64,000 nt of DNA from Thermodesulfobacteriota bacterium (lineage in GTDB: Bacteria > Desulfobacterota > Desulfobulbia > Desulfobulbales > SURF-16). A program made the translations under genes and the position numbers. The notes beneath the pieces were generated by a model. The model saw only the letters and a list, made by a program, of their open reading frames with translations. It was not told the origin of the DNA and did not search any database. Positions within the stretch are counted from its first letter, which is position 1. Every line of letters begins with the position of its first letter. Below, in pieces: positions 2 to 46,310 of this stretch. The stretch covers positions 62,540 to 126,539 of the forward strand of contig JBMONO010000009.1 of the NCBI GenBank assembly GCA_049323655.1, written 5' to 3'.

Positions 2-1477
2 GCCGGCTGCGTCGATGCCAAGATACTCCCTGTCGATCATCTGTTGCAACAAAAGCATCAGGGAGGGATCCGCAGGCATGGCGAAGTCGGCAAGATCATC
101 AAAAAGCACGGCAAAGGAAGAGGTTGTCGGCTTGCTTCCCGCACTCTGCTCCGGAATGATCTGCTCCACCCGGACGTTCAGGCCGGGTGCCAATCCAACA
201 AGCGGGCAGGGATCCAACAGCGGGGCGGAAACACCGGCATGGAAACAACGGAGAAAACCCTGCTCCTCAACCAGCGGCGCGCTGCCGACAAAGAGACACC
301 CTCCGCCGCCGGCGCATGTCACGGATATCATTTTTCCCGAAACGGCGCCCATCTGGCTGGCCAGAGCCCGGCTGCGGATAAGCTCATAGAGCCGCCGCTC
401 CGCGGGAGACACGACTTCCGGCAGCGCCTCGCCTGTCAACTCCGGCAGCAGGGGAAGAATACCCTGGCCGGCCATTTCCCTGGCAACGAGACAGGCGCTG
501 CCGAACCGTTTTTCCACTTCCGCCCGAATCAGCGCCAGGACGGCGCTGGCCTGGCAACCGGACTCGGCAAGCGGATTGCTGACCAGCCCAGTCCAGCGCC
601 CGTTGATCTCGATGCCATGGTAAAATTTCCACAAGGTCCGCGCCACCTCAACCGGACCCATACCGATCAAAACATGCCCATCCTCCAGCAATTCAGCCAG
701 CCGGTATGGAACGGGCGGCTCGACCTGAAACGGCTCGGAACCGAGCTGTTCCACCACGCACGGCTGTCCCTCGAAAAGAGCAACTGTTCTTTTCGCCTCG
801 GCCGCATCCTTCAGCAGCCCATCGTCGGAGATACCGTAGACCTCGCGCAGCCTGGCGGAGAATACGCCCCCGGGACCGGCCAGGCGAACTTCGATCCCCC
901 AGTGCGTTGCCATGTTGGGCTCGGCACACTCCCTCTTTCGTTCGTCAAGGAGAAAAAGGATAGTCAGGGAGGAAAAGGTGAGGGGCAGACCGCCGGGCCC
1001 TGCGCCGGTACCGATCAATCGGCTAATATGTCCGGTGAGGCAGTTGTTAAACAGAGAACGGATATAAAGAGCGGCGGCCCTGGCCGCATTGACCGGCTCC
1101 ACCAGGTGAAAGGAGGCGGCCAGCTCGTCGGCGGTGAGGCCCGAGAGATGAATCCGGCGAGCGCTTTTCTGCCCCCGGGTGGCGGCAAAGAGAAAGCCGT
1201 TCAGCATCCAGCTCCATAGCTCGCCCCGCTGGTCGCTGTCAAAGCCCAGATAGATGTCTTTGTCGAGACTGGCGAGCAGCGCCCCGGCAACCTGCCGCCC
1301 CCCTTCTGTCGGCACGAACTGAAAGCCGGTTTCCCCGGTCCACAGTTTTGCCGCAGCGGGATTATAAATTACCGTCATCGGCGCGGAACGCACCAGCAAC
1401 GGCTCACAGGCTCCGTTGCTCTGTTCCCGCAGCGCCTTTGCCTTTGCCTCGGATTCAACGATCACCAGAGTTGCCAT
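2..1477 (-). CDS. DNA topoisomerase IA (TopA)-like protein, probably catalytically inactive; 3' end beyond left edge
   Basis: Absent from the ORF track (no stop in window). Hand translation from ATG 1477 (AGGAG upstream) is open for 492 codons: MATLVIVESEAKAK (TOPRIM start), IYLGFDSDQRGE (cf. DxDREGE), PPVPY, FYHGIEINGRWTGLVSNPLAES (cf. LYEG..GLITYMRTDS), RLYELIRSRALASQM (cf. LYxLIWxRFxASQM). Confidence 0.85.
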   Translation of the reverse strand, partial: MATLVIVESEAKAKALREQSNGACEPLLVRSAPMTVIYNPAAAKLWTGETGFQFVPTEGGRQVAGALLASLDKDIYLGFDSDQRGELWSWMLNGFLFAATRGQKSARRIHLSGLTADELAASFHLVEPVNAARAAALYIRSLFNNCLTGHISRLIGTGAGPGGLPLTFSSLTILFLLDERKRECAEPNMATHWGIEVRLAGPGGVFSARLREVYGISDDGLLKDAAEAKRTVALFEGQPCVVEQLGSEPFQVEPPVPYRLAELLEDGHVLIGMGPVEVARTLWKFYHGIEINGRWTGLVSNPLAESGCQASAVLALIRAEVEKRFGSACLVAREMAGQGILPLLPELTGEALPEVVSPAERRLYELIRSRALASQMGAVSGKMISVTCAGGGGCLFVGSAPLVEEQGFLRCFHAGVSAPLLDPCPLVGLAPGLNVRVEQIIPEQSAGSKPTTSSFAVLFDDLADFAMPADPSLMLLLQQMIDREYLGIDAAG

Positions 1478-7296: not shown

Positions 7297-7716
7297 TTAG
7301 ACCTTTTCGTCAAAGAGCAGACCGATAAGATCGCGCAGCTTTTCCTTGAGTTTCAACACCTCTTCGGAAGGAAACTGTTTGATTACCTCATCGGTTTTTT
7401 TATCCCGCAGCTGGCTGACAATGCTTTTCGACTCCAGATCCTTATACAGACCAAAACGGAAAGCGCTGCCGATGGATTCGAGACGCTTATTGATATCCTT
7501 CACCGCCTCTTCCAGATCCTCCCGGGACAGCTCTTTCTCCTTTTTCCCCTCTTTTTCAGCCTTGCCGCGCAGGGCCTGCTCGTTGAGTTTGACCGTCACC
7601 GCCTCACTGCTTTCCGGCACGGGCTGCACCTGCGGCTTTACCGCGTCTTCCATTTCAACCGTCGATACGGTCGGCACGCCATACGTTTTAACATCAGTCG
7701 TTACGTTGACATCCAT
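7297..7716 (-). CDS. flaG: Flagellar protein FlaG
   Basis: LEEAVKDINKRL..LRDKKTDEVIKQFPSEEVLKL..GLLFDEKV; GGAGG RBS; flagellar context. Confidence 0.9.
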   Translation of the reverse strand: MDVNVTTDVKTYGVPTVSTVEMEDAVKPQVQPVPESSEAVTVKLNEQALRGKAEKEGKKEKELSREDLEEAVKDINKRLESIGSAFRFGLYKDLESKSIVSQLRDKKTDEVIKQFPSEEVLKLKEKLRDLIGLLFDEKV

Positions 7717-7739
7717 GACAACCTCCAGCGATAATGATC

Positions 7740-8171
7740 TTATGCCTTGTTGCTGAGATATTTCGGTGGCGGTCCCGCCCCCTGCTCGAGACGATAGCCC
7801 TTGAGGACGGTCTTTCCCCGACGCAATCCGTTCAGCTCCCGGCGAAGCGCCGCCAATCGCCCGTCCACCTGACTTCTGAGGGTTTCCTCATCATGGAGAA
7901 TTTCCCGCATCAGGGCTTGCACCTGGGCGGCCGCCCGGCCCGCTCCATCCAGCAGAGTCGGATCAAAATGCTCCAACCGTTGCTGTAAACGGCAAAAGGC
8001 CCGTTGCCGTTTCTCGGTCCACTCCTGCACGTTGCCGAGCCGCCCTTCGGCAAGAAGGGCGGCGTGCTGGCGCTGCAAGGCGGCAAATTCCTCCAGGGCG
8101 GCAATCAGCTCTCCCTCTTGTCCGTCATCCACCTTCACCTCCACCACCGTTTCGGCTAAGCCGTTGAGCAA
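7740..8171 (-). CDS. Helical flagellar chaperone-like protein (FliT/FlgN-like); start uncertain
   Basis: Follows fliS; all-helical pattern; C-terminal LRRGKTVLKGY. Confidence 0.55.
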   Translation of the reverse strand: MLNGLAETVVEVKVDDGQEGELIAALEEFAALQRQHAALLAEGRLGNVQEWTEKRQRAFCRLQQRLEHFDPTLLDGAGRAAAQVQALMREILHDEETLRSQVDGRLAALRRELNGLRRGKTVLKGYRLEQGAGPPPKYLSNKA

Positions 8172-8191
8172 AAACTATTTGAACATTTTAT

Positions 8192-8224
8192 TCTCCCATA
8201 CGACATAAGGAGTCGCATGGGAGA
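8192..8224 (-). other. Intergenic RNA hairpin between fliS and the fliT-like gene
   Basis: 13-bp stem with one G-U pair on the minus strand and a 7-nt loop. Confidence 0.5.
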
Positions 8225-8257
8225 GGCATAATGGTACAGGTTATTTCCGCACGGCTC

Positions 8258-8746
8258 CTAAATGGAGAAAGAAACCCCGGAGGAGAACGCACCCTTCCGT
8301 TCGACTTCTCCGGTCATGCCGGCAGTCGCCCCGCCACAGGCATCCAGGGCGCCGGCATCCTTTCTTTCCAGTTCCGCCATCGCGGTTTCTTCCCAGATCT
8401 CCTTCAACCGCCTGATATAACTGATGGTCTGTCGCACGATCTGCCCGTCATTGTTCGCCGAGGCCTTGGGTAACTCCAGCAGAATCGCACTATAGAGCCC
8501 GCGCAGGAAAAGGGCGGCATCGGATCCGTCATCTTCCTTGACCGAGGCATTGAGTTCGGTGATGATGGCAATGGCCTTACCGAGATTTTCTCCCTTGAGC
8601 TGCGGATTGCTCTTCTCAATGCCGATCAGCGCCATGTCAAGATGAATCAGGGCACGCTCATACATGAGGTGGATAAGCTTGACCGGGTGAATTTTCGACT
8701 GGCCTTCGGTTTGTCGGTAGGCATTGCGGGCTTTGGCTGCATTCAT
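8258..8746 (-). CDS. fliS: Flagellin export chaperone FliS
   Basis: NAYRQ..PVKLIHLMYERAL..KAIAIITELNASV..LYSAIL..IKEIWEE-like motifs; ATG 8746 has GAGGAG RBS (track start 8785 is upstream). Confidence 0.92.
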   Translation of the reverse strand: MNAAKARNAYRQTEGQSKIHPVKLIHLMYERALIHLDMALIGIEKSNPQLKGENLGKAIAIITELNASVKEDDGSDAALFLRGLYSAILLELPKASANNDGQIVRQTISYIRRLKEIWEETAMAELERKDAGALDACGGATAGMTGEVERKGAFSSGVSFSI

Positions 8747-8791
8747 GCGTCTCTCCTCTGTGGACCATTCTTCATCAGACACCATCTGCCA

Positions 8792-10507
8792 TTATTTGTC
8801 GCGACCGCCCCATGCCTTGGCGATGCTGTCAAACTGGTTGGCAAGATACCCTGACAACGATGTCATCTGATTCATGTAGCGATCCAACTCGATAAATTGT
8901 TTGGTCAGCAGTTCGTATTTTTTATCAAGACGATTCGTTTCCTGCTCGATCTTCAATTTGAGGTCAGTGATGCGGACCTGGGCCGAACTTTTCTCGCCTT
9001 CGATCTGTCCTCCCGCCCCGGTGATGTAACGCAACTGATCGTTGACCCTGTCGGCAAAGCCCTCGATATTGCGGTCGCTGTCGCCCAGAAAAAAGGCGCT
9101 GACCCCGTCGGGGTTGTCGGCCAGGGCCTGGTCGAACATTTCTTCATTTAAGGAGATGGAGCCATCACGATTGAACTCCAGTCCGAGATCAAAGAGGGAA
9201 CGGATAGCGCCGGTCCCGTCCGCCAGCACGGAAGATGTCATCAACCGCTGCAGGGTGTACGGCAGATCCCGCACCGTGGTGCGGGCCAGCACGCCGAACT
9301 CCTCTGTTTCGCTGTCGTAACCGGTGGTCGTTTTTATCTCGGTCAGGGCGGCATTATAGGCAGTGACCAGACTTTCGACCATCTCCCGGATTGCTTCATC
9401 GTTTTTACTGATGGTGATGGTGGCGCTGCCTGCTTTTTCGAGATTGATGGTCAGGCCGGAGACAATGTCGGACACCGTGTTGGACTGGCGCTGATAGTTG
9501 ACGCCGTCCACCGCGAACTGGGCATTGAGCGACGCGCCGCCCGCTCCCTCCTGCTCGGCCATCAGCATATCCGGCAACTGGGAGAGAAAGGAGATGCGGC
9601 CGGCCTCGCCGGTCGTGCCGGATTGCAGGCTCAGCCGGTACGGGGTGGCGGCATCGCCGTCATTGATCACCTTCGCAGTGACCCCGGAATTATCGGCAGC
9701 GCCGTTGATGAGATCAGCGAGCCCGGCCAGGGTGGTGTCGGCGGCCACGGCAATGGAGACCACGTCGCCGTCGCCCACCTTGTAAAACAAGGTCTTGTCC
9801 GGCGCGGCGAAATCGAGATCCGCCAGGGTCTCGCTGATCGCCACCCGATTGGTCTCGCCGGTGCCGCCGCTGACATCGCTTTTGACCCGCAAAAATGTCT
9901 CACCATTAAGCTCATAGGTTTCGGCGGTGACGAGCCGACCATTGTCGCCGCCGCCGACGTTATCAACATGGCTGTTGATGGCGGTCACCAGGTCGTTCAT
10001 CGTCATGTCGCCGGCAATGGCGAGCGAAATGGTATCCGCGCCGGCAAAGGTGATGTCGAGCGTTTCCCCGGCCCGGGCGACGATATCGACGGCCGGATCA
10101 GCCACGCCGCTGCCGGATTCCGCGCTCACCGGCACATAGACGCTGGTGCCCGTATCCGCCATGCCGGCGGATGACAGCCAGGAGCTGCGGGAGGCCACCT
10201 TGGTGACATCAAGCGACAGGGTCTGGGCCGTGGTGCCGTCCAGTACCGTCGCCCTGGCGACCTTTTCATCGGAACTGATGACGCTGCGGCCGAGAAAGGA
10301 GCCGGACAGGGAGAGTTTGAGCGCCGCGCTTTTCAGGGACAACAGCTTGCTGTTGACGGTGGAAAGGCCGGTCAGCCGGTTTTCAAATCTGGTGATTTCG
10401 GTCTGCTTGCGATTGACGACCTGCTGATCGATCTTGCGGAGATCCTCCAGCATACCCTGAAGATCGATGCCTGATCCGACGCCAAGCGTTGTGATTGCAC
10501 CAGCCAT
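8792..10507 (-). CDS. fliD: Flagellar filament cap protein FliD
   Basis: ITTLGVGSGIDL N-terminus, NAQFAVDG..RQSNTVSDIVSGLTINL, C-terminal KQFIELD coiled coil. Confidence 0.95.
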   Translation of the reverse strand: MAGAITTLGVGSGIDLQGMLEDLRKIDQQVVNRKQTEITRFENRLTGLSTVNSKLLSLKSAALKLSLSGSFLGRSVISSDEKVARATVLDGTTAQTLSLDVTKVASRSSWLSSAGMADTGTSVYVPVSAESGSGVADPAVDIVARAGETLDITFAGADTISLAIAGDMTMNDLVTAINSHVDNVGGGDNGRLVTAETYELNGETFLRVKSDVSGGTGETNRVAISETLADLDFAAPDKTLFYKVGDGDVVSIAVAADTTLAGLADLINGAADNSGVTAKVINDGDAATPYRLSLQSGTTGEAGRISFLSQLPDMLMAEQEGAGGASLNAQFAVDGVNYQRQSNTVSDIVSGLTINLEKAGSATITISKNDEAIREMVESLVTAYNAALTEIKTTTGYDSETEEFGVLARTTVRDLPYTLQRLMTSSVLADGTGAIRSLFDLGLEFNRDGSISLNEEMFDQALADNPDGVSAFFLGDSDRNIEGFADRVNDQLRYITGAGGQIEGEKSSAQVRITDLKLKIEQETNRLDKKYELLTKQFIELDRYMNQMTSLSGYLANQFDSIAKAWGGRDK

Positions 10508-10648: not shown

Positions 10649-10682
10649 AAAAAGGGGTGGCGGCCTCATCGCCGCCACCCCT
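10649..10682 (-). terminator. Rho-independent terminator of fliC
   Basis: Perfect 12-bp stem AGGGGTGGCGGC/GCCGCCACCCCT ending in a U tract on the minus strand. Confidence 0.9.
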
Positions 10683-10752: not shown

Positions 10753-13176
10753 TTATCCCTGCAGCAGACTCAGAACGTTCTGGGCGCTGGCATTGGCCTG
10801 GGCCATGGCAAAGGTGCTGGCCTGAGTCAGAATCTGCATCTTGGAGAAGTTAGCCGACTCCTCGGCAAAGTCAACGTCACGGATCGCCGATTCCGCGGCC
10901 GAGATGTTGACCCGGGTGACCGAGACGTTGGAGATGGTCGCGGTCAACTGGTTCTGGACGGAACCGAGGTCGGAACGAACCTTGTCGAGATCCTTCAGGG
11001 CCGAATCCGCCACCGTGATGGCGATCTGGGCGTCTTCCTGGGTGAGCACGCTCAAGCTGGACAGACGGTTGGTTTCGGTGTCCGCCACCTTGGTGCCCGA
11101 GGCGCCGCCGGCGTTGGCCGCCAGGGTGGAACCGGACTGAATAACCGAATCCTTCGCGATAGTCATATCATTCGCCAGGGTTTGATCACCGGTGGTGACA
11201 TAATCACGCTCAAGGGTTGTTCCGGCGGTAATGGTAACGGTACTGCCGCCGGCATCCAGCACGTTCATGTCATTGGTCAGCACCGTTCCCTGGGCCAGAG
11301 TACTGCCGCTTTTCAGAATAGACCCGGCTGCCAGACTGACCGCATTCTGCGCCGTCAGAGTGCTGCCGGCGGCGGTCACGACGTTGCCGCCCAGGGTGGA
11401 ACCGGCGGCAAGGGTACTAGCCGTGGCAATGGTGGAGCCTGACTCGAGAGCCGTTGCCTGGGTGGTAGTCAACGCAGCGGTGGTCGTGACATTGCCGCCG
11501 ACCTGACTGCCGGCAAGCAGGGTTGAGCCTGTCGCCTCGATCGTGCTTCCAGCCTTGACGGTCATATCCTGGGTCAATGTCGTGTTGCCGGCAGTGACCA
11601 GATCCACGCCAAAATAGGAACCGGTATTCAGGGTGCTGCTATTATTAAGAACAGTGCCATGGGCCACGACCATATCGGAACTCAGAGTCACGGCGGAGGC
11701 AGCCAGGGTCGTATCCGCGTTGAGCACGGTGCCGGCCTTGATCGTGTCGCCATTGCTATCGACAAGATCCTGGGTGACAACGGTACCGGCCGCCAGGGTG
11801 GAGCTTGCCGCCAGAGTGGAGCCTGCGGTCAGCAGGGCCGCGCCGGTGGTGGTATAAGTGGCGGCGGAGGTGGTGAACTTGCCGCCCAGCACCGAGCCGG
11901 ACTCGATAGTCGATGTACCGCCGATGGTGGAACCGGCCTTGATAACGGAATCATAGGTACCGGAAATATTGGCGGTAAAGTTGGTATCACCGACCAGATT
12001 GCCGCCGATGGTGGTGCCGGCCGCCAAGGTACTTGCCGAGGCGATGGTGGAGCCGGCCGCCAGGGTGGAGTCTATAATAGTGCTCATGGCACTGGCGGTG
12101 GTGACATTGGTGGTGAAGTCGGTAGCCGAACCGCCGGCCAGGTCTGTTACGAGCAGCTCGTTGGCGCCATACTGGGTCAACTGGATATGACCGAAGGTGC
12201 TCATGTTGGAGCCGGCCAGTACGGTGCCGGTGCCGCCGGTGACGGAGATCGCCCTACCGTCGGTGGAGGTCAGGGTCAACTTGCCGTCTGCGCTGGTGCT
12301 GGCAACGACACCGTGATCAGCGGTTTTATTGTTGATCGCCTTGACCAGAGCACCATCGGCATCATTATCGCTGACCGTTACCTTGCCGATGGAGACGCCG
12401 TTGATGGCGAAATCGGAACCGGTGGTGCCGGCGGCAACCGAATTGGCGCTGGTGGACTCAACCACCGCCTTGGCGGAGATACCGAGCACGTCGGAAAGCT
12501 TATTGATGGCATCCTGGAGCGCGCCCATGCTGTTTTCGCGACTGTTGTTCGCCTTAATGTCAACCGCTTCAACGCTGAAGGCCTTGCTCTGCAGGTTGCT
12601 GTAGATGGAAAGCTGGACCGTGCCGCCCGACGAGTTGGTCAGTGACAGATTACCGGAGGTGACGTGGCCTATCTTGTTTGACTCCGAGGAGCCGATGGAG
12701 ATTGAGACCGTCTCACCGGAGTAGGCGCCGACCTGGAACTTCTTGTTGGTGAAGTTACCGGAGAGCAGTTTCTGATTATTGAACGAGGTGGTGCGAGCGA
12801 TCATATCAAGCTCTTCCAGCAGCTTGGTGATGTCCGACTGGATCGCCTTCCGGGATTCGGTGGTCTGTCCGTCCTGGGCAGCCTGAATCGCCTTGGTTTT
12901 GATGGTGTTGACGATGTTGATGGACTCTTCCAGGGCACCGTCAGCGGTCTGCACCATGGCGATACCGTCGTTGGCGTTCCTGATCGCCTGGCCGAGACCA
13001 AGGGCCTGGGACTTCAACGAGTCGGCAATGGCCATGCCCGAAGCATCATCGGCGGCGCGATTGATGCGCAGACCGGATGAGAGCTTCTCCAGGGATGACG
13101 ACAAGGCGTTGTCGTTTTTCACCATGTTTTTGTGGGCACTGAGCGCTGCGATGTTGGTGTTGATGCGTAATGCCAT
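10753..13176 (-). CDS. fliC: Flagellin (807 aa) with large Ser/Thr-rich repeat insert
   Basis: MALRINTNIAAL..LSSGLRINRAADDASG; C-terminal RSDLGSVQNQL..AESAIRDVDFAEE..QNVLSLLQG. Confidence 0.98.
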   Translation of the reverse strand: MALRINTNIAALSAHKNMVKNDNALSSSLEKLSSGLRINRAADDASGMAIADSLKSQALGLGQAIRNANDGIAMVQTADGALEESINIVNTIKTKAIQAAQDGQTTESRKAIQSDITKLLEELDMIARTTSFNNQKLLSGNFTNKKFQVGAYSGETVSISIGSSESNKIGHVTSGNLSLTNSSGGTVQLSIYSNLQSKAFSVEAVDIKANNSRENSMGALQDAINKLSDVLGISAKAVVESTSANSVAAGTTGSDFAINGVSIGKVTVSDNDADGALVKAINNKTADHGVVASTSADGKLTLTSTDGRAISVTGGTGTVLAGSNMSTFGHIQLTQYGANELLVTDLAGGSATDFTTNVTTASAMSTIIDSTLAAGSTIASASTLAAGTTIGGNLVGDTNFTANISGTYDSVIKAGSTIGGTSTIESGSVLGGKFTTSAATYTTTGAALLTAGSTLAASSTLAAGTVVTQDLVDSNGDTIKAGTVLNADTTLAASAVTLSSDMVVAHGTVLNNSSTLNTGSYFGVDLVTAGNTTLTQDMTVKAGSTIEATGSTLLAGSQVGGNVTTTAALTTTQATALESGSTIATASTLAAGSTLGGNVVTAAGSTLTAQNAVSLAAGSILKSGSTLAQGTVLTNDMNVLDAGGSTVTITAGTTLERDYVTTGDQTLANDMTIAKDSVIQSGSTLAANAGGASGTKVADTETNRLSSLSVLTQEDAQIAITVADSALKDLDKVRSDLGSVQNQLTATISNVSVTRVNISAAESAIRDVDFAEESANFSKMQILTQASTFAMAQANASAQNVLSLLQG
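11113..12069 (-). repeat. Degenerate protein repeats in the flagellin variable region (about 8 blocks of hexapeptide repeats)
   Basis: e.g. LAAGST-IASAST-LAAGTT-IGG; IKAGST-IGGTST-IESGSV-LGG; LESGST-IATAST-LAAGST-LGG. Confidence 0.85.
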
Positions 13177-13184
13177 GATTTTTC

Positions 13185-13287
13185 CTCCATGAGAGTGAGA
13201 TTGGGAATCCTTTCCCGTGTGTTACGTGAAAAAGTTGTAAAACAGAATCCTGAAGATTTTTTATCGCGGAATTACCACCTCCTTCTG
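13185..13287 (-). promoter_or_regulatory. Putative CsrA/RsmA binding sites in the fliC 5' UTR
   Basis: GGGAA-AGGA-UUCCC hairpin (13203-13216), AAUC-UUCAG-GAUU (13246-13258), CUCAUGGAG over the SD, and AGAAGGAGG. Confidence 0.65.
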
Positions 13288-13329
13288 TTTTCTTTGTATT
13301 TACATGCGTACAAGTCGTTTTCAATGTGC

Positions 13330-13356
13330 TTATCGGCCCATCTTTTCTTCTCTTGA
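13330..13356 (-). promoter_or_regulatory. sigma28 (FliA) promoter of fliC
   Basis: TCAA-N15-GCCGATAA, near consensus, preceded by an A8 tract. Confidence 0.9.
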
Positions 13357-13496
13357 ATTTTTTTTCCTCTTACTCCAAACAGATAAAAACCTTTACAACA
13401 GCCGGCCCTTACGCAACAATACACAACAAACGGGTATATTTATTGCAGACAACCCACCGCACATCATCAAAAGTCTGCCGGCAACGGAAAACACAA

Positions 13497-16400
13497 ATGA
13501 AAAAAAAACAAAAACACCACCGATCCGAGACCGGGCCTTATGCCGGAACACGGCAACTAACGGCATCCGCCATCATAACGCACCTGCAGAACGCCGTGGG
13601 ATTGCAAAACAGCGGAGAATTTTCCCGGGCAAAAAAAATTTACCGGGAGGTCCTGGCAACAGATCCCACCAATCAGGACGCCCTGCACCTGAGCGGTCTG
13701 ATCGCCATTCATGATCAAAAATTTGACACCGCCAGAGAACTCATCAACCGGGCCATTGCCAGGGCGCCGCACATTGCGGTTTTCCACATCAGCCTCGGCG
13801 CGGCCCTGGCCGGTCTGCGCGACTATGAGGGCGCGGCGGACGCCTTCCGCCGCGCCCTCCACCTTGATCCGGACAACACCGAGGCGCTGTTTCAGCTTGG
13901 CAATCTCCACAAGAACCAAGGCAAATTCACGGAAGCCCAATCCTGCTACCGGCAGGTTCTGCGCCAGCTGCCGAACCATGTCGCCACATTGAACAATCTT
14001 GGCAACATCCACAAGGATCTCGGCAGATTCACCGAGGCCATCACCTGCTACCGCCAGGCCATTGCCGCCGATCCCACGGTTGCCGATCTCTACATTAATC
14101 TGGGCAACGCCTACAAAGATATGCTGATGCCGCAGGAGGCGATCAACAGCTATCTAAAGGCCATTGAGGTCCGCCCCGACTTTCCGGATCCCTACAACAA
14201 TATCGGCTATGTTCTCCAGCATACCGGCAAGCTGCACGATGCCCTCGACTACTACCAAAAGGCTTTGAACATTCATCCCGATCTGCCCGAGGTCTACCAT
14301 AATCTCGGCAACGTCCACAAGGACATGGGGCACTTTCCGGAGGCGATCGCCGCCTATCGCAAAGCGGTCGCATTGCGGCCGGATTTCGTCAACGCCCACA
14401 CCAACATCCTCTTTGCCATGAACTATGACGAAAAGGCCGACCCCACAGCAATGCTCCGCGAGGCACACCAATGGTGGACGCAGCAGGCGGCGCATCTGGC
14501 TGATCGCTATCACCTGACCAACGACCCAGATCCGGACCGCCGGCTGCGCATCGGGTACGTCTCGCCCGATTTCTGCATCCATTCGGTGAGTTTTTTCTTT
14601 CTCTCCCTGTTGGAAGCACATGACAATAATCAGTTTGAGATCTTCTGCTATTCCGATACCCCGCGGCCCGATGCCATGACTGCCCGCCTCCAGGGCCTTG
14701 CCCATCACTGGCGGCAGACAACCGGACTGCCGGATGAGGCGGTCGCCGATCAGATCCAGGCCGACGCCATCGACATCCTTTTTGACCTGACCGGGCATAC
14801 TGCTCACAACCGCCTGCTGGTCTTTGCCCGCCGACCGGCACCGGTCCAGGTTGCCTGGCTTGGCTACCCGAACACTACCGGCGTCGCCACCATTGGCTAC
14901 CGCATCACCGATGCCATTGCCGATCCTCCCGGCACCTCCGACCCCTTTTATACGGAAAAGCTGGTTCGTCTGCCCGGCTGCTTTCTCTGTTACTCGCCGC
15001 CGGAAAGCGCCCCGGCCATCGGCACACTCCCCGCCGAGGGGCAGGGGACAATCACCTTCGGCTCATTCAACAACATCACCAAAACCTCGGAATCGGTGAT
15101 CCGACTCTGGTGCGACATCCTTCACCAGGTGCAGGATTCGCGCATCCTGCTGAAAAGCATCGTCTTCGAGGATCCCGCCACCCGACAGCGTTATCTCGAC
15201 ATCTTTCACCGCTACGGCATTTCCCCCAATCGGATTTTCCTCAAAAAACGGACCGCCTCCACCGAAGAACATCTCAGTCTCTACAATGAGGTGGACATCG
15301 GCCTTGACCCCTTTCCCTACAACGGCACCACCACCACCTGCGAGGCGCTGTGGATGGGGGTGCCGGTCATCGCCCTGCGGGGCGACCTGCACTGCGCCCG
15401 GGTAAGCGCCAGCATCCTGACCAGCTGCACATTGAACCATCTGATCGCCGAAAACCCGGAGGAATATGTCCGCAAGGCGGTGGCCCTGGCCAATGACCGC
15501 GAACAACTGCGCGGGTTCAGAACCCATGCCCGCGCCATCCTTGCCGCCTCTGTTCTCTGCGACAAGCGACGTTTCGCCCAGGAGATGGAAGCGGCCTTAC
15601 GGGCCATGTGGCGTGACTGGTGCGCAACAATCACCCCCCGGGCCGACATCCATCAGGAGAACACCATGACAACAGACACGGCGGCCAAGTTGAACAGCAA
15701 AGGCGAGGAACTTTTCGGCGAAGGACGCATCGCTGAGGCGGAGGCCCTCTTTGTCCGGGCCATTGCCCTTGATCCGGCCTGCGCCACCGCCTTTAACAAT
15801 CTCGGCGTCCTCCATTATCATCGCGCCGAGTACGACGAGGCCCTGCGCTGCTTCCGCAAGACCCTGGAGATCGCCCCGGAGGGCGGCGCCGCCCTGGAAA
15901 ATATCGGCGAGCTGCTCAAGGCGGTGCAGGGCGCATCGCCCCCTCTTGCCGCAGATCCCGGCCAACCGACCGAAAGCCGGGAGACGATCATGGCCGGCAT
16001 CAATGCCTTTCCCTTCTGGTACCACAAAATCGAGCTGCCGGGCGGCATTGTCACGCCTGGCTATGCCCCCATTGATGCCGCCGCCTATCGTATTCCGGCC
16101 GATCTTTCCGGTAAACGGGTGCTCGATGTCGGGGCATGGGACGGCTACTGGAGCTTCGCGGCCCTGAAAAGGGGGGCGCGGGAGGTGGTCGCCATCGACG
16201 ACTTCAGCGATTACCTGGGCTCGCTGGAAAAACGCGACCGCAAGGCGTGGGAGACCTTTGATTTCTGCAAAAAACAGCTCGGCTACGGCGACGACCGCTG
16301 CAAGCGCATGGAAATGACCGTCTACGAGGCAGACGAAGCCAGGCTTGGTCGGTTCGACGTCATCTTCTTCTTTGGCACCCTCTACCACCTCCGCTATCCG

Positions 16401-16727
16401 CTCCTCGCCCTTGATCGGCTCGCCGCCCTCTGTGACGGCGAAATCTTTGTCGAAACCGCCATCCTCGACGATTTCAGCCCATACAACGGCGGCCTGGGCA
16501 AGGGATATCCCGGTCGCCAGATGGTGATGGAGTTCTATCCGGGCAAGGAATATGGCAATAATGAGACCAACTGGTGGGCCCCCACCCTCTATTGCCTGAT
16601 CAACATGGTCCAGGCCGCCGGCTTCAGCAACTGCCGCGGCTGGAAACTGACCGACAGCCCGGGGGAACTGCCGCATTGCCGGGGATTCGCCTATGGCAAC
16701 AAATGGCAAGAGCAGCACAGCGCATAA
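13497..16727 (+). CDS. TPR + SPINDLY-clade GT41 protein O-glycosyltransferase + TPR + class I SAM methyltransferase fusion
   Basis: Multiple TPRs (NNLGN repeats); RIGYVSPDF..HSV, DLTGHTAHNRL, WLGYPNTTG, FGSFNN, PYNGTTTTCEALWMGVP; C-terminal VLDVGAWDG, GTLYHLRYP. ATG 13497 preferred because the track start 13326 overlaps the fliC promoter. Confidence 0.9.
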   Translation: MKKKQKHHRSETGPYAGTRQLTASAIITHLQNAVGLQNSGEFSRAKKIYREVLATDPTNQDALHLSGLIAIHDQKFDTARELINRAIARAPHIAVFHISLGAALAGLRDYEGAADAFRRALHLDPDNTEALFQLGNLHKNQGKFTEAQSCYRQVLRQLPNHVATLNNLGNIHKDLGRFTEAITCYRQAIAADPTVADLYINLGNAYKDMLMPQEAINSYLKAIEVRPDFPDPYNNIGYVLQHTGKLHDALDYYQKALNIHPDLPEVYHNLGNVHKDMGHFPEAIAAYRKAVALRPDFVNAHTNILFAMNYDEKADPTAMLREAHQWWTQQAAHLADRYHLTNDPDPDRRLRIGYVSPDFCIHSVSFFFLSLLEAHDNNQFEIFCYSDTPRPDAMTARLQGLAHHWRQTTGLPDEAVADQIQADAIDILFDLTGHTAHNRLLVFARRPAPVQVAWLGYPNTTGVATIGYRITDAIADPPGTSDPFYTEKLVRLPGCFLCYSPPESAPAIGTLPAEGQGTITFGSFNNITKTSESVIRLWCDILHQVQDSRILLKSIVFEDPATRQRYLDIFHRYGISPNRIFLKKRTASTEEHLSLYNEVDIGLDPFPYNGTTTTCEALWMGVPVIALRGDLHCARVSASILTSCTLNHLIAENPEEYVRKAVALANDREQLRGFRTHARAILAASVLCDKRRFAQEMEAALRAMWRDWCATITPRADIHQENTMTTDTAAKLNSKGEELFGEGRIAEAEALFVRAIALDPACATAFNNLGVLHYHRAEYDEALRCFRKTLEIAPEGGAALENIGELLKAVQGASPPLAADPGQPTESRETIMAGINAFPFWYHKIELPGGIVTPGYAPIDAAAYRIPADLSGKRVLDVGAWDGYWSFAALKRGAREVVAIDDFSDYLGSLEKRDRKAWETFDFCKKQLGYGDDRCKRMEMTVYEADEARLGRFDVIFFFGTLYHLRYPLLALDRLAALCDGEIFVETAILDDFSPYNGGLGKGYPGRQMVMEFYPGKEYGNNETNWWAPTLYCLINMVQAAGFSNCRGWKLTDSPGELPHCRGFAYGNKWQEQHSA

Positions 16728-17512: not shown

Positions 17513-19393
17513 ATGAAAAACATCCGACTGGGACGACATATCATCGGCGAGGAGCAGCCGACCTATATCATCGCAGAGATCGGCATCAACCACAACGGCG
17601 ACGAGAAACGGGCCGCGCAGCTGATCGAGGCGGCGGCAGCAGCCGGGGTGAATGCGGTGAAATTCCAGAAACGCCACCTGCCCAGCCTCTACCCACCGGA
17701 GGTGCTCGAATCACCGGAAAAATTCGAACAGACGTTTCAGTACATGATTCCGCTGCTCAAAGAGGTGGAACTGCAAGAAGAGAGTTTTGGTCGCCTGAAA
17801 AAGCAATGCGATACGCACGGACTTGATTTTCTCTGCACCCCCTTTGATCCCAAAAGCGCCGATTTCCTGCACGGGCTGGGGGTCAACGGCTTCAAGATCG
17901 CCTCAGCGGATCTCACCAACCTGGAACTCCTGGAGCATGTGGCATCCTTCGGTAAACCGCTCATCGTTTCCACCGGCATGTCGCTCTGGGAGGAAATCGA
18001 GGCGGCGGTCAGCCATCTGCGCCGCTGCAACGCCGAATTCGCCCTGCTGCACTGCCGCAGCGTTTATCCGGTCTGGCCCAGGGAGGTCAACCTGCGGATG
18101 ATCAACCGGCTCAGGCAGTTCGATTGCCCGGTGGGCTATTCCGGCCACGAAGTCGGCATTGTCATTCCCCTGGTTGCCGCCTCCATGGGGGCCAGTATCA
18201 TTGAAAAGCATATTACCCTGGACAAGAACCTGCGCGGCCCGGACCACAAGGTCAGCCTCGATCCCTACGAATTCAAGCGCCTGGTGCGCGATATCCGGGT
18301 TGCCGACCAGGCGGTGGGCAAAAGCAGACGTTATCTGCTGCGGGGTGAAGTGCTCAACCGCGAACTGTTCGGCAAGAGTCTGGTGGCAAGCCGGGAGATT
18401 CCGGTCGGCACCATCATCTCCCGCGACATGGTGATGACCAGGGGGCCGGGCAAGGGGTTGAGCCCGCTCAAAATGATCGACCTCATCGGCACTCCGGCCA
18501 AACGCACCATCAGGCAATTTGATTTCTTCCAAGAGGCCGATCTGGATAACGGGAGCAGCGCCGGTGAATTTACCAATTCCTTCAGGAGCCAGTGGGGTCT
18601 GATCGCACGGTTCACCGACGTCGAGGCCATGCTGGCCCATGCCCCGAAGGTGCTTGAGTTTCACCTGGCGGAAAAAGATTTTTCCCTTACTCCCCATTTC
18701 AACCGCGGTTATCCCTGCCGCCTGGTGGTTCATGCCCCGGAATACATGGGCGATGAACTGCACGACCTGGCCAGCCTGGACGAAGCCGTGCGCGCCCGCT
18801 CCGTGCAGGCGACACTCAAAACCATTGATCTGGCCAGACAGATCGCCCCCCACTTCCAGGGAAAAGCCAAATTCATTACCCACCCCGGCGCCATGAGCCT
18901 GAGCCAGAAGCTCGACCAGGCAAAACTTGCCGCCAGCCTGGCCAGGTCGGTCCAGGAGATCCTGCCCGTGGTGGGGGATGACATGGAGTTTCTCCTGGAA
19001 AATCTGCCGCCCTACCCCTGGTACTTTGGCGGGCAATGGAAAGGAAACTATTTCATGGCCGCAGACGAAATTGCCGATTTCTGCAGTCGCCAGAGGATAA
19101 ACATCTGTTTTGATCTTTCCCATGCCGCCCTTTATTGCAATGCCAAGGATGTGGCCCTCGACGCCTATATCCGCACCGTGCTGCCGCTTATCCGCCACAT
19201 TCACTTTGCCGACGCCTACGGCCTGGACGGCGAGGGCATGCAGATCGGCGAGGGGGACATCGATCTGGACCGCATCATGCCGCTCTTTGCCGACTATCGC
19301 GGCACCTGGGTCCCCGAGGTGTGGCGCGGTCATCTGGAAAACGGCCAGGGATTTCTTACCGCCCTGGAACGACTGAAATCATACCCGCTCTGA
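17513..19393 (+). CDS. neuB: Nonulosonic acid synthase (NeuB family) + SAF domain + C-terminal sugar-isomerase-like TIM barrel
   Basis: IIAEIGINHNGD, AVKFQKR, FKIASAD, IVSTGM, GYSGHE, IEKHITLD; C-terminal ENLPP, CFDLSH, HIHFAD, GEGDID. Confidence 0.9.
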   Translation: MKNIRLGRHIIGEEQPTYIIAEIGINHNGDEKRAAQLIEAAAAAGVNAVKFQKRHLPSLYPPEVLESPEKFEQTFQYMIPLLKEVELQEESFGRLKKQCDTHGLDFLCTPFDPKSADFLHGLGVNGFKIASADLTNLELLEHVASFGKPLIVSTGMSLWEEIEAAVSHLRRCNAEFALLHCRSVYPVWPREVNLRMINRLRQFDCPVGYSGHEVGIVIPLVAASMGASIIEKHITLDKNLRGPDHKVSLDPYEFKRLVRDIRVADQAVGKSRRYLLRGEVLNRELFGKSLVASREIPVGTIISRDMVMTRGPGKGLSPLKMIDLIGTPAKRTIRQFDFFQEADLDNGSSAGEFTNSFRSQWGLIARFTDVEAMLAHAPKVLEFHLAEKDFSLTPHFNRGYPCRLVVHAPEYMGDELHDLASLDEAVRARSVQATLKTIDLARQIAPHFQGKAKFITHPGAMSLSQKLDQAKLAASLARSVQEILPVVGDDMEFLLENLPPYPWYFGGQWKGNYFMAADEIADFCSRQRINICFDLSHAALYCNAKDVALDAYIRTVLPLIRHIHFADAYGLDGEGMQIGEGDIDLDRIMPLFADYRGTWVPEVWRGHLENGQGFLTALERLKSYPL

Positions 19394-19481
19394 CAAAAAT
19401 ATTTAATGATCTGCTCCTGGCTGCCGAACAGAAACATAAACCATTCACTCACTGAACGATCTATCGAGGCCTCGATACAGC

Positions 19482-20438
19482 ATGAACATCCTGATGATCA
19501 CCGCCAACGATCCGGCCGGCATGGGCATTGCCTTCACCAATGCCATCAACCGCTACAGCGAACACCGCTGCCGGCTGATCACCAGTCAGGACCGCTACGG
19601 CATTGATTTCGGCAAGGATATTCATCTGCCGGACATCCATGATGATGACTTCGGCGAGGTGGAACAGCTCCTCAAAAACGCCGACATCATTCATTTTCAT
19701 ATGCTGTCCGATGAGAACGCCCATCTCGGCCCTCTGGTCATCCGGGACTTCACCAGTGGCAAAAAAATTCTCCATCACCATCACGGTCATCCCGATTATC
19801 TGATCAATGCAGCAGCCTACAACAAGAAATATCGCAGCCTGAACCGCAAGGTCATTGTCAGCACCCCGGACCTTCTCCAAATTGCCGAAAACGCCACCTG
19901 GGTGCCGAATCTGGTGCCCATCAACGATACCCATTACCTGCCCCGCTTTGAAGACAGTCTGCCGACCGCGCCGATCAAAATATGTCAGGCACCAACCAGA
20001 AAATTTGATAAGCATACCGAGGTGTTTCGCCGGGTTTTCCAGCAACTTCACAGGAAGTACCCACACCTTGAGCAGGTGATCCTGGAAAGGATGAACCACC
20101 TCGACTGCCTCAACGCGAAAAAAAGCTGTCATGTTGTCTTTGATCACATGCGCGGCTGGTTCGGCATCTCCTCACTCGAATCCCTCAGCCAGGGGAAACC
20201 GGTGATCGCAGGTCTTGACGACTGGAACATCAAATGTATCCGGGAATTCACCGGAACAGACCTGTTGCCCTGGCAGGTGGCCCGCGATGAGAAAGGCTTA
20301 TACAGCGTACTGCGCACCTTGATTGCGGATCGCGAATTACGCCTGGAAGTCGGCAGGAAGTCCCGGGAATTCATGGAACAGCACTGGACCGAGCAGCGGG
20401 CCTTACGGGTTCTGTTTGCTGTTTACGCCGCTTTGTAA
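19482..20438 (+). CDS. GT-B fold glycosyltransferase-like protein
   Basis: CQAPTRKFDK, VVFDHMRGWFGISSLESLSQGKPVI; operon context. Confidence 0.7.
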   Translation: MNILMITANDPAGMGIAFTNAINRYSEHRCRLITSQDRYGIDFGKDIHLPDIHDDDFGEVEQLLKNADIIHFHMLSDENAHLGPLVIRDFTSGKKILHHHHGHPDYLINAAAYNKKYRSLNRKVIVSTPDLLQIAENATWVPNLVPINDTHYLPRFEDSLPTAPIKICQAPTRKFDKHTEVFRRVFQQLHRKYPHLEQVILERMNHLDCLNAKKSCHVVFDHMRGWFGISSLESLSQGKPVIAGLDDWNIKCIREFTGTDLLPWQVARDEKGLYSVLRTLIADRELRLEVGRKSREFMEQHWTEQRALRVLFAVYAAL

Positions 20439-20446
20439 GGATTAAG

Positions 20447-21004
20447 ATGACGCTGAAGGCAAGCGACAATCCGCCCTCCTGCTTTCCGGATGATCTTTTC
20501 AGGCGGCCGGCTGCCGATGACGGAACAGTGTGGTGGGTTGCCCGCACCAAAAGCAGACAGGAAAAGGCCTTGGCCTGGGAGCTGCACGCCAAGGGGCTTC
20601 CCTATTATCTGCCTCTGGTGGCAAAGCCCCAGAATTGCCGTGGCAGAATGCGCGCCTCAATCCTGCCTCTTTTTAGCGGATATCTGTTTTTTAAAAGTGA
20701 CCAGCAGGGACGCTATGAGGCCCTGTGCGGCGGCCGCATCGCCCAGATCCTTGAGGTTCAGGATCAGGAAAAAATCACCCGCGAACTGGCAAATCTCAAT
20801 CTGGCAACCCAGGCCAGGGTGAACCTGACCCTCTGCGATTTTGCCAAAGAGGGGCAACGGGTACGCATCATTGCCGGGCCCTTTTCCGGCCTTGAGGGCA
20901 TTGTTCGCAAACAGAAAAATCAGACCCGCCTGATCCTGAATCTTGAGGCGATCAGGCAGGCGGCCACGGTAGATATTGCGCTGGAGCAGGCTCAGCCTAT
21001 TTAA
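20447..21004 (+). CDS. Specialised NusG paralog (RfaH/UpxY-like antiterminator)
   Basis: NGN: WWVARTKSRQEK, YYLPL, PLFSGYLF; KOW: GQRVRIIAGPFSGLEGIV. Confidence 0.9.
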   Translation: MTLKASDNPPSCFPDDLFRRPAADDGTVWWVARTKSRQEKALAWELHAKGLPYYLPLVAKPQNCRGRMRASILPLFSGYLFFKSDQQGRYEALCGGRIAQILEVQDQEKITRELANLNLATQARVNLTLCDFAKEGQRVRIIAGPFSGLEGIVRKQKNQTRLILNLEAIRQAATVDIALEQAQPI

Positions 21005-21102
21005 CGCAACATACTGATTTTATCTTATTTTTATAAAAAATCGGGTGTACCCGACAGGGGCGAAGTGCGTCTATCACACCGCAAACACAGGAAGGATGCG
21101 CC

Positions 21103-21840
21103 GTGGAAACTCGAAAAAATATTGCCTTGATCTGGGCTCGCGGCAATGGCAGCTCGCTCCCCAGGAAAAGTGTCTTCCCAATTCTGGGCAAACCGCTCAT
21201 ATCATACATTTTGCAGGCAGTCCGGCAGAGCGGCATCATTGACAGACTGTATGTCTTTACCGAAGATCAGGAGATCATGGAAATCACGCAGCAACTTGGT
21301 TGGCAGATCATTGTGCGACAAAAACATATGGTCGAATATGATGACCCAGGTTTCAATATTCAGGAAATCAATCACTATCAAAACCAGGCCATTCTTCGCG
21401 ACCTCAGTGCCTCCCCTGCAGATATCCAGCGAGGGGCAATCACCCCGTACGTCAAGGGACTTTTCCACTTCAACTGTAACCACTGCCTGATCACGGCAAC
21501 GACGATCCGGGGCATGTACAACAAACTGCAGGAATCTGATGCGAGCAGTATCTGCATTGCCACCAAGGTAGACCCGCACCTTTTCATTCTGCATGGAGAA
21601 AAGGAAACCCCCTTTCCCATCTGGCATCAACATGGCCTGGACCGCCGCAACTATCCGCCACTTTATCGACTCTATCCGGACACCAATTATATTCGCATTG
21701 ATCAACTGAGTGTAAACCGCAGACAGATAATTTATCAGATTCCCAGGGAAGAAGCCCTCGATGTCCATGACATTGCTGATATCAGGCTCGCGGAGTTCTT
21801 CCTGACGCAACGCAACGAACTGCCATCGGAAAAGTCATGA
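21103..21840 (+). CDS. neuA: Acylneuraminate cytidylyltransferase-like (NeuA family), divergent
   Basis: IALIWARGNGSSLPRKSV..GKPLI (cf. ARGGSKxxPxKN..GKPLI); C-terminal LDVHDIADIRLAE. Confidence 0.75.
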   Translation: METRKNIALIWARGNGSSLPRKSVFPILGKPLISYILQAVRQSGIIDRLYVFTEDQEIMEITQQLGWQIIVRQKHMVEYDDPGFNIQEINHYQNQAILRDLSASPADIQRGAITPYVKGLFHFNCNHCLITATTIRGMYNKLQESDASSICIATKVDPHLFILHGEKETPFPIWHQHGLDRRNYPPLYRLYPDTNYIRIDQLSVNRRQIIYQIPREEALDVHDIADIRLAEFFLTQRNELPSEKS

Positions 21841-24271: not shown

Positions 24272-25460
24272 AAAAAAATTATTGGTAGCAACATCGACCT
24301 TTCCCCGCTATGCGGGAGATATTGTGCCGGCTCGCTTTGTCCTGCACCTCAGTGAACAGTTCTGTGACCGCTATGACGTCCATGTGCTCGCCCCTCATGA
24401 CCCCAAGGCCTGTTTTGAGGAAAAACTAGGAAAAATCAAGGTGTCCCGCTTTCCCTATTTTTTCCCAACAAACAAACAGGTATTATGCGACGGCCGGGGC
24501 ATTCTCCCCAATATGCGCGCCAGCCTGCTGGGGAAAATGCAGATTCCCGCGCTTCTGCACGCGGAGCACCTTGCCTTGCGCCGGCTGATACAGTCCATCA
24601 AACCCGCCATCATTCACTCACATTGGGCTATCCCCCAGGGTCTTTGCGTATCGCTTGCCACCGGGAAAGACATCCCGCAAATTCTGACCATCCACTCCTC
24701 TGACCTGCACACCCTGAGGCGGCTGCCGGGCGGGGAGAAAATGCTTCGTTACATCGCAAACCGTTGCCATACAATTTTTCTGGTGAGTTCCTACCTGCGC
24801 GACCTTTTTCTGCAAATGGTGCCAAATCCACCCTGCAGCTTGCAGGTGTTGCCCATGGGTGTTGACCAAATATTCTACCGTCGCAAAATTATAACTGCTT
24901 CCCCTAAATGGCAGCTGTTGTATATAGGAAAGATGATAGAGGTTAAAGGTATCCGGTATCTCCTGGAGGCCATGGATAAAATCAGGAGAATCCTGCCCAG
25001 ATTACGGCTTACCCTGCTCGGCGACGGTGAGGATCGGCCAAAACTGGAAGCCATGGCCAGAGACTTTGATCCTGAAGGGAAAACCATCTCATTCGCCGGC
25101 CAGATTGCCCAGTCGAGATTGCCTGATTATCTTGCGGCGGCAGACGGACTGATCGTTCCCTCCATCGTCACCACACGACAGGAGACCGAAGGGATGCCCA
25201 CCGTCATCCTCGAAGCGCTTGCCTCAGGCACCCCTGTTCTCGCCTCCAGAATCGGCGGCCTGGCCGATACCATTTTCGAAGGCGTCAACGGACTTTTTTT
25301 CGAACACTCAAATCCTGATGATCTTGCCGCCAAAATCAACACATTCTACCAGCAGAAACTCTGGTCCACCATGCCTGCCGAGGCAGGCAGTTCCGCCAGG
25401 AAATATGCATGGCCGGAAATCGGCAGGCAATACCTGGAGGTTTTCAATAACGCATGTTGA
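24258..25460 (+). CDS. GT4 glycosyltransferase
   Basis: HSHWAIPQG, IGKMIEVKG, EGMPTVILEALASG; TTG 24258 chosen for AAGGA RBS. Confidence 0.9.
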   Translation: MAAAKKKLLVATSTFPRYAGDIVPARFVLHLSEQFCDRYDVHVLAPHDPKACFEEKLGKIKVSRFPYFFPTNKQVLCDGRGILPNMRASLLGKMQIPALLHAEHLALRRLIQSIKPAIIHSHWAIPQGLCVSLATGKDIPQILTIHSSDLHTLRRLPGGEKMLRYIANRCHTIFLVSSYLRDLFLQMVPNPPCSLQVLPMGVDQIFYRRKIITASPKWQLLYIGKMIEVKGIRYLLEAMDKIRRILPRLRLTLLGDGEDRPKLEAMARDFDPEGKTISFAGQIAQSRLPDYLAAADGLIVPSIVTTRQETEGMPTVILEALASGTPVLASRIGGLADTIFEGVNGLFFEHSNPDDLAAKINTFYQQKLWSTMPAEAGSSARKYAWPEIGRQYLEVFNNAC

Positions 25461-44958: not shown

Positions 44959-46310
44959 CAGCATATACCCCTTTTTTCATACTCGGCCACCCCCGTTCCG
45001 GCACCACGGCGCTGGCACGGCTGCTCAACTGCTCCCCCCAGGTGGCCTGCCTCTATCAGGAAGGAAACCTCCTCTTCCGCCTCTGGCAAACCCTGCAGCG
45101 TACCGATGTGCTCACAGAACCGATCGGTGATCTTCTGGCAGATTTTGAGACAACAGCGCAACACAACCTTGTTCTTCGCTCTCCTGTGCAGCATTCTCCC
45201 AAACTGTGTTTCAGTGACGACACCATCCGGCAACTGATTGCCACCTATCAACAATGTCTGCAATCATCCCCGGACCCCAAAGAAATTTTCGCCAGGGTAT
45301 CAAGCAAATTCTTTGCTCTTTTTGCCGACTACACCAAGGCCCGGGTGGTAGGCGACAAGGTCCCGGATTATCTTTTCATCCCCGACCACATCTCCGCCCC
45401 CCACCCGGATTGTCTGCTTATTGCCATAAGCAGAGACCCCAGGGCGGTCATTCACTCTGCCCTGGAATTCAGCAGAACCACTCTCCATCTTTTTGCCTCA
45501 CCCAGCGCCTTTGCCATGGCGGTGGCCTATTGCATAAAACAAAAGGGTCTCGATGATTTCTTTGCCAATTTTGCCCCGGAACGCCGACTGTTCATCAAGC
45601 AGGAAAAACTGCAAAACTCCCCGCAGGCTGTGCAGGAAAAAGCACATGCCTTCCTGAAAATAGCACCACCTTCGGGGAATGAGGCCGGTGTTGCGTCACC
45701 AATAAAAGACTGGCGCCGGGAAATGAATAAAGAGGACCAGGATGCGGCTCTTGCTGTCTGTTGCGCCTTCGATCTTATGGAAAGAGATCATGAAATCCCC
45801 CCTTCCCTATCAGATAAAGCGGAAATCATCAAACAACTCTTCTCCTCCGCCGATGCTGAAATCGCGCCACTGGCCAGGCAGGCTGCCTTATTCTTCCACC
45901 GTTCAGAAGATGAAAAAAAAGAATTCGGGTTTACCTTGACCCACCTGGCTGATTACTTTTATAAACGATCCGCCTTTTCGCGGGCAGAATTGTTCTTCCA
46001 GCAGGCAGTAAGTTTTGTGCAGAATGACCCCATCCTCTGGTACAAATACGCCCTCCTCTGTTATGATACCAAACAATGCCAAACCGCCATCATCTGTCTG
46101 GAACAGAGCCAGCGGTATTGCCCTCCGGACCCCTATCATGCTTTTTTACGCGCCAAGATTTTTTATCTGCAGGGCATGGTGGCAAGACTCATGGGCGATG
46201 ATGAAAATGCGACAAAGGCATTGCAGGGAGCCCTCAGGGCAAAGCCGGACTTTGCCCTGCCGTCTAAAATGCTGGAGATCCTCCAATCCTCAAAGGCCGC
46301 AAGACGATGA
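44955..46310 (+). CDS. Sulfotransferase + C-terminal TPR protein
   Basis: FILGHPRSGTTALARLL, GDKVP, RDPRAVIHS; TPR-like C-terminal helices. Confidence 0.85.
   Translation: MTAYTPFFILGHPRSGTTALARLLNCSPQVACLYQEGNLLFRLWQTLQRTDVLTEPIGDLLADFETTAQHNLVLRSPVQHSPKLCFSDDTIRQLIATYQQCLQSSPDPKEIFARVSSKFFALFADYTKARVVGDKVPDYLFIPDHISAPHPDCLLIAISRDPRAVIHSALEFSRTTLHLFASPSAFAMAVAYCIKQKGLDDFFANFAPERRLFIKQEKLQNSPQAVQEKAHAFLKIAPPSGNEAGVASPIKDWRREMNKEDQDAALAVCCAFDLMERDHEIPPSLSDKAEIIKQLFSSADAEIAPLARQAALFFHRSEDEKKEFGFTLTHLADYFYKRSAFSRAELFFQQAVSFVQNDPILWYKYALLCYDTKQCQTAIICLEQSQRYCPPDPYHAFLRAKIFYLQGMVARLMGDDENATKALQGALRAKPDFALPSKMLEILQSSKAARR

Follow-up and report, generated by a model that had tools for sequence, protein, structure and literature searches.

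Hexapeptide repeats are currently considered diagnostic of the parallel left-handed β-helix, the fold of LpxA, LpxD, GlmU and γ-carbonic anhydrase (PF00132). Among flagellins, the closest described filaments are those of Helicobacter pylori FlaA and FlaB (9ygu, 9yh1) and Campylobacter jejuni FlaA (6x80), whose D0–D3 core is common to the 807-aa flagellin analysed here, and whose systems likewise have Maf-type glycosylation genes nearby. Large outer domains also occur in the giant flagellins, which thicken filaments but whose repeats, in the available part of that paper, are tandem globular regions (Thomson et al. 2018, PMC6248924), and in the pectate-lyase-like cluster 35 of the flagellin outer-domain survey of Fields et al. 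2024 (PMC11532411, accessible text), although the helix of pectate lyases is right-handed parallel (PMC13123833, available text).

The window, that is, the whole stretch of 64,000 nucleotides analysed, contains an intact flagellin gene of 807 aa (10753..13176, minus strand), with Flagellin_N, Flagellin_C and Flagellin_IN above the Pfam cut-offs (PF00669, 159 bits; PF00700, 97 bits) and D0/D1 helices present in the structure model. The genome, 99.6% complete, has two PF00669 matches, this protein and an FlgL-like frame of 684 aa, and fliF above cut-off; the 807-aa protein is the sole flagellin found in it, so that the filament would consist wholly of this protein. Adjoining the gene are fliD, fliS and flaG, which together with a fliT-like gene (28.1 bits, below the 29.5 cut-off) lie downstream at 7297..10507 on the minus strand (Pfam). 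The N-terminal part (aa 1–345; 12142..13176, minus) comprises the D0/D1 helices and a D2/D3 region of the Helicobacter/Campylobacter type, and the C-terminal part (aa 695–807; 10753..11094, minus) a strand that rejoins D2/D3 in the model secondary structure and then the D1/D0 helices (Flagellin_C). H. pylori FlaB (9yh1) aligns with aa 3–342 and aa 687–806, so that some 345 residues of the repeat-bearing rod discussed below stand in place of about 45 FlaB residues. In Desulfamplus magnetovallimortis, several flagellins (L049, L075, L076) share one core, whereas the inserts in its slot are unrelated, the rod in an 843-aa flagellin and other inserts in those of 724 and 1083 aa; hence the slot, which we take to be the place of D4 in C. 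jejuni FlaA, appears to act as an exchangeable cassette. Around the gene in the window there are also a GCCGATAA box upstream (13330-13337, minus), presumably a sigma-28-type −10 element by its consensus, a 14-base anti-16S-like match (13271-13284, minus) about 95 bases 5′ of the start codon, GGA motifs close to the start, which we assume may be CsrA sites, and a strong terminator at 10653-10682.

The initial annotation had described, at 11113..12069 (aa 370–688), a surface domain of about eight hexapeptide blocks. The three blocks that it quoted are present letter for letter (aa 372–392, 449–470 and 615–636), and its count is fair, since three hexads are complete in seven blocks, an eighth has two, and two hexads stand alone after the hairpins. 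The motif [LIV]xx[GSA][ST][TIVL][LIV] occurs 20 times in aa 366–690, whereas 10,000 shuffled versions of this stretch average 0.76 occurrences and never exceed 6, and the autocorrelation of the repeat sequence peaks at lags 6, 12, 18 and 36–37. The higher-order duplication noted earlier is real (aa 464–485 and 630–655, the second copy being 4 residues longer), and the domain matches itself with 36.6% identity over 164 columns; at the DNA level, Tandem Repeats Finder detects merely a 38-base piece, which suggests that the repeat is old. The strands said to join the blocks do often carry Thr at position 1, but the six-residue register continues through them with the pattern reversed, a large hydrophobic residue standing at position 5. 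An alignment of 114 relatives gives a column profile in which the register extends over approximately aa 355–685 in units of 36–40 residues, each consisting of three hexads with a near-invariant Ser/Thr at position 5 followed by reversed-pattern hexads, and it is broken at two hairpin-like sites, X1 (aa 470–480) and X2 (aa 636–650).

A parallel solenoid runs one way, whereas the flagellin chain has to go out and come back (PMC6248924, available text), and the model secondary structure has no return linker after the last hexad, which makes a parallel single-chain reading problematic. The segments between the breaks (about 115, 155 and 40 residues) cancel out, leaving no net displacement, if the chain changes direction at both X1 and X2, so that contacts are expected at i+j of about 950 and 1286; these sums were fixed before covariation was computed. 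In the main set of 169 relatives of 775–845 aa (effective 129, depth being low across all the covariation sets, at 129–170), the strongest covarying pairs are 385–562, 423–527 and 626–660, and 10 of the top 20, 19 of the top 50 and 28 of the top 100 pairs have sums that deviate from the predicted ones by at most 3, where 0.4, 1.1 and 2.1 are expected; wider bands, chosen post hoc, hold 19 of 20 and 35 of 50 (expected 1.2 and 2.9). A second pair of bands lies about 18 further on, at sums of about 967 and 1304, from which each strand would have two antiparallel neighbours one coil apart, with three strands and 18 residues per coil (bands 950/968 and 1286/1304), and the 18-residue offset combined with the 6-residue period gives three faces. 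With 229 sequences, the predicted bands hold 39 of the top 100 pairs and those 17–18 further on another 17 (background 2.1% each); each half of the split family places 18 of 100 pairs on the predicted bands, and the column-shuffled control 1 of 100.

The repeat region (aa 350–694; 11095..12129, minus; covariation, model and fold searches), with its 53 short strands, is therefore very likely one rigid three-sided β-helix, predicted to consist of two antiparallel arms of a single chain wound together, and the β-helix projecting from the filament that was proposed earlier is supported in the form of such a rod, with 18-residue coils on the outside of this flagellin. The chain would exit D2/D3 and wind outward along the outgoing arm (aa 358–473; 11758..12105, minus; 19 strands), which consists of three units of 36–40 aa, nominally 36 residues in six 3-residue strands at 18 residues per coil, and pairs with aa 477–616 at i+j of about 950 and 967. 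It would turn at hairpin X1 (11737..11769, minus), the far tip of the long arm, where pairs 471–479 and 470–480 covary, and then wind back between its own coils along the returning arm (aa 477–639; 11260..11748, minus; four units and 27 strands, from covariation), passing its entry point. At hairpin X2 (11227..11271, minus), the tip of the short arm, from which the anti-diagonals at 1286 and about 1304 extend, it would turn again and wind back by one unit, the tail arm (aa 647–685; 11122..11238, minus; 7 strands; pairs 626–660, 612–674, 606–680 and 620–684), which would return the chain to its entry point so that its two ends come together and re-enter the filament core. The rod would be about 85 Å long (17.7 layers of 4.8 Å, from the 53 strands), attached about one quarter along its length and forming the outer layer of the filament, and it may fold after export by zipping from X1 and X2.

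The AlphaFold model of the domain is confident (pLDDT 95.0, pTM 0.87), its topology being read from the match ranges of the fold searches alone and AlphaFold drawing on the same signal as the covariation. The fold searches gave weak matches to double-stranded β-helix folds, centred on X1 (model 75–180) and X2 (model 261–327), and the left-handed β-helix expected from the earlier description is absent among the 50 matches listed for either search; among these listed matches the rod has no solved counterpart, and its fold is probably undescribed. Reasoning from the hairpin register about the handedness of winding gives opposite answers for the two loop lengths.

Two other topologies have to be weighed against these data. 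That the domain is a canonical single-chain parallel left-handed β-helix of the LpxA/GlmU type, projecting from the filament with about 18 coils, would agree with the hexad periodicity itself ([LIV]-x-x-x-[small]-x, as in that fold), with the Pfam Hexapep match in 44 of the 45 aligned family members, and with the search of the family profile against solved structures, in which all 60 listed matches are left-handed β-helix proteins (best E 1.6e-6); this is the reading that the initial annotation took from the hexad rule, and we consider it highly improbable, being already largely refuted by covariation. In-register stacking of i on i+18 is not seen in the 169 relatives, since pairs at i,i+16..20 account for none of the top 20, two of the top 50 and five of the top 100 (expected 0.6, 1.4 and 2.9) and the contacts are antiparallel; when the signal at i,i+18 is summed, a small value remains (mean z 0.34), which may be due to the similarity of the repeats or to second-neighbour contact. 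A parallel helix would, moreover, have no return path to the flagellin core, and it leaves unexplained why length changes in steps of two units, one in each half.

Contacts on anti-diagonals could also come from neighbouring subunits or swapped arms within the filament, or from a pair of single-chain solenoids lying side by side head to tail, rather than from interleaving. The outer domains of several flagellins dimerise (PMC11532411, accessible text), and a hydrophobic outward strip on one face near X1 (aa 429, 448, 466, 503 and 521) would suit such an association. Nevertheless, this origin is very unlikely, since the contacts begin within the hairpins (471–479, 638–648) and span all three faces, the two bands lie 18 apart as expected of interleaving, side-by-side solenoids would still give strong i,i+18 pairs, and the single-chain model is confident.

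The lengths of relatives, which are independent of covariation, point to the same interleaved, two-armed rod. Counted as outgoing, returning and tail units, proteins of about 800, 885 and 980 aa have 3/4/1, 4/5/1 and 5/6/1, those of 1100–1160 aa 7/8/1, that of 1273 aa 9/10/1, and those of about 1330 and 1415 aa 10/11/1 and 11/12/1; the returning arm equals the outgoing arm plus one unit in 44 of 48 proteins (807–1419 aa), which fall into at least seven length classes obeying the rule and are related rather than independent. In 46 of the 48, symmetry places the hairpin within an irregular gap of the hairpin type, to which about 15% of gaps belong. Of the misfits, P0257 (980 aa) has seven outgoing units and a shortened return arm and breaks the rule as sequenced, being either an assembly collapse or a natural unbalanced rod, and P0246, P0248 and P0249 look like parsing misses or truncation. 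Another 48 proteins, of 930–1070 aa, were excluded by length ahead of the count; this class adds to the 3/4/1 arrangement a block of about 165 aa that pairs with itself with the same signature (sums 1214–1220 and 1237; 55 sequences) and is likely a branch rod, while in this small set the out-arm/return-arm pairing of the main rod was not resolved by covariation. Rod length varies about threefold among relatives, and also among paralogues (802, 1121 and 1339 aa in Desulfospira joergensenii); each added pair of units would lengthen the rod by about 19 Å, to some 240 Å in the relatives of 1414 aa. The modules of X1 and X2 are copies of each other by the self-match, and the rod may have originated by tandem duplication of one hairpin-bearing module with a units out and b back, which gives arms of a, a+b and b that are automatically balanced.

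A search limited to the repeat, which had been suggested earlier for flagellins, yielded 511 proteins at E ≤0.001 among 7,994 candidates scored, and all 120 listed carry a flagellin family; further searches added longer forms of the repeat-bearing flagellin. Carriers include Desulforapulum autotrophicum, Desulfospira joergensenii, Desulfobotulus alkaliphilus, Dissulfurimicrobium, Thermodesulfatator indicus, Sulfuricurvum kujiense, Sulfurospirillum and a Nitrospinota bin, and the spread is patchy: of 401 genomes drawn from the phylum, 11 have the repeat. A species collection gave 51 loci by one pattern; one repeat-bearing flagellin (L007) has a markedly divergent N-terminus (55% identity to aa 8–170 of the window flagellin) and is perhaps a minor flagellin. 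Run against 1.84 billion representatives, a profile gave 44 matches at E ≤1e-30 and 1,081 at 0.001, many of the weaker ones resembling ordinary hexapeptide proteins, and 46 of 139 new proteins were flagellin-like. Related hexad repeats with hairpin motifs, in triad-plus-hairpin modules, are present in FlgL-type (hook-filament junction) proteins P0305, P0345 and P0361, while the FlgL-like protein of this genome has no hexad repeats. The profile also matched P0326, P0333, P0334, P0339, P0347 and P0353 (1796–4145 aa, mostly without Pfam or PHROG match), of which the four inspected (P0326, P0333, P0339 and P0353) have repeated modules of three hexads plus an Asn-Gly hairpin; P0353 is a tail-fibre-type protein that ends in an S74 phage tail-fibre chaperone domain. 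It seems rather likely that the flagellin rod represents a new fold class, a three-sided two-stranded antiparallel hexapeptide β-helix that closes itself at both ends and would serve as a ruler on flagellar filaments (about 85–240 Å, growing by paired unit addition and branching where one insertion sits inside another); some FlgL and phage tail-fibre-like proteins, now mis-annotated as left-handed parallel, would have this fold too. A two-stranded hexapeptide rod is not described in the literature searched, and the earlier remark that no such fold had been described in a flagellin stands for that literature and for the available text of the main outer-domain survey, from which 'solenoid' and 'hexapeptide' are absent and whose table, as available, lists neither the UniProt family members C0QA28, E4TXD4, F8AAQ7 and A0A562RTD7 nor 'Hexapep'; survey cluster 268 (1106–1245 aa) might, from the accessible part, hold members of the rod family (PMC11532411).

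In hexapeptide β-helices, positions 1 and 5 of the hexad face inward. Over the 53 strands, position 1 is mostly Leu/Ile/Val and position 5 is Ser/Thr in 30; the Ser/Thr ladder to which glycan display had been ascribed is near-invariant and, by the hexad rule and the hydrophobic periodicity, inward, and these residues are likely core residues, so that any glycans would sit on the outward Thr and the turns. The outward strand centres (n=53) comprise 31 Thr, 13 Val and 3 Ser, and the turns 34 further Ser/Thr. Glycosylation of the outward Thr is plausible from the neighbouring genes, and a nearby Maf-like or GT41 enzyme may O-glycosylate them. Divergent from the flagellin gene is a gene for a protein with TPR, family-41 glycosyltransferase and methyltransferase regions (13326..16727, plus; Pfam), by its position a candidate flagellin-modifying enzyme. 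On this side there are many glycosyl-, methyl- and sulfotransferases, besides a NeuB-type nonulosonate synthase (17513-19393, plus) and a CMP-transferase (21103-21840, plus), both matching Pfam and NCBIfam below equivalog cut-offs and spanning 17513..21840 (plus) of a long sugar-modification cluster, and a Maf/PseD-like protein (46307..48217, plus; PF01973 above cut-off, NF050051 PseD E 7e-21, far below cut-off), a candidate flagellin glycosyltransferase; the Maf-like transferase and the nonulosonate genes are thus linked, with matches below equivalog cut-offs. Within 6 kb of the repeat-bearing flagellin, Maf-like genes occur at 22 of the 51 loci and GT41 at 8 others (30/51), counted in rod-bearing loci only. 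The cluster spans about 37 kb (13326-50400). Among its genes are four for B12-binding radical SAM proteins, two for sulfotransferases and several for methyltransferases, together with a NeuB–TIM-barrel fusion and a NusG-family antiterminator, while four ORFs have no Pfam match at E 1e-4 (19482-20438, 25454-26272, 32400-33527 and 39639-41339). Elsewhere in the window, a 42-base tandem repeat (2541-2883; 8.2 copies, 91% matches) encodes an acidic 14-residue repeat in a 733-aa protein (1705-3906) with a C-terminal formylglycine-generating-enzyme-like domain.

The rod likely forms a stiff bristle of adjustable length on the outside of the flagellar filament, and we tentatively prefer thickening and shielding of the filament as its role, ahead of adhesion. 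With the same topology, its main job could be adhesion to minerals or partner cells through acidic, Thr-rich faces, for which the charge of the domain (21 Asp+Glu against 7 Lys+Arg), the regular outward rows of Thr, the same proposal for the acidic Geovibrio filament (PMC11532411, accessible text) and the related modules in a phage tail-fibre-type protein could be adduced; we regard it as unlikely, since the outward positions vary among Thr, Val and Ile without a conserved pocket and rod length varies about threefold among relatives and paralogues. If the topology is confirmed, the natural series of 3 to 11 units in cultured, non-pathogenic species would allow the effect of filament thickness on swimming, attachment and phage evasion to be addressed directly, and a rod that caps itself, has its termini side by side and can be tuned in length could serve as a loop-inserted design scaffold.

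This flagellin is a known kind of protein with a probably undescribed fold, and would show how a solenoid can meet the out-and-back constraint. With the parallel left-handed β-helix the rod shares the six-residue register, the large aliphatic residue at position 1, the small residue at position 5, Gly/Asn/Asp at position 4, and three strands and 18 residues per coil; it differs in its predicted antiparallel pairing, two interleaved arms, two closing hairpins, reversed pattern on alternate coils, and an extracellular structural role without an enzyme domain. If true, hexapeptide repeats encode an antiparallel two-stranded helix as well, and Hexapep/LbH annotations on surface proteins would need rechecking. 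The double-stranded β-helix or jelly roll is the fold of cupins, cNMP-binding domains, the P-type ATPase A domain and the designed 6e5c, and the covariation describes, as in that fold, an antiparallel hairpin wound into a superhelix. Cupins, however, are short two-sheet sandwiches, whereas the 18-residue offset and 6-residue period of the rod do not give a two-sheet cross-section, and the rod is three-sided, repetitive and double-ended, with 17 to about 50 layers. In the available parts of the respective texts, the Omnitrophota giant proteins (bioRxiv 10.1101/2023.11.21.568195) and the Knotted Solenoid (PMC13123833) are likewise non-canonical β-helical rods by prediction, the 'antiparallel beta-helix' of the former being a hollow RHS-like tube with outer helices and the latter an order-shifted coil in whose available text the word 'antiparallel' is absent; as described there, both folds are different from the flagellin rod.
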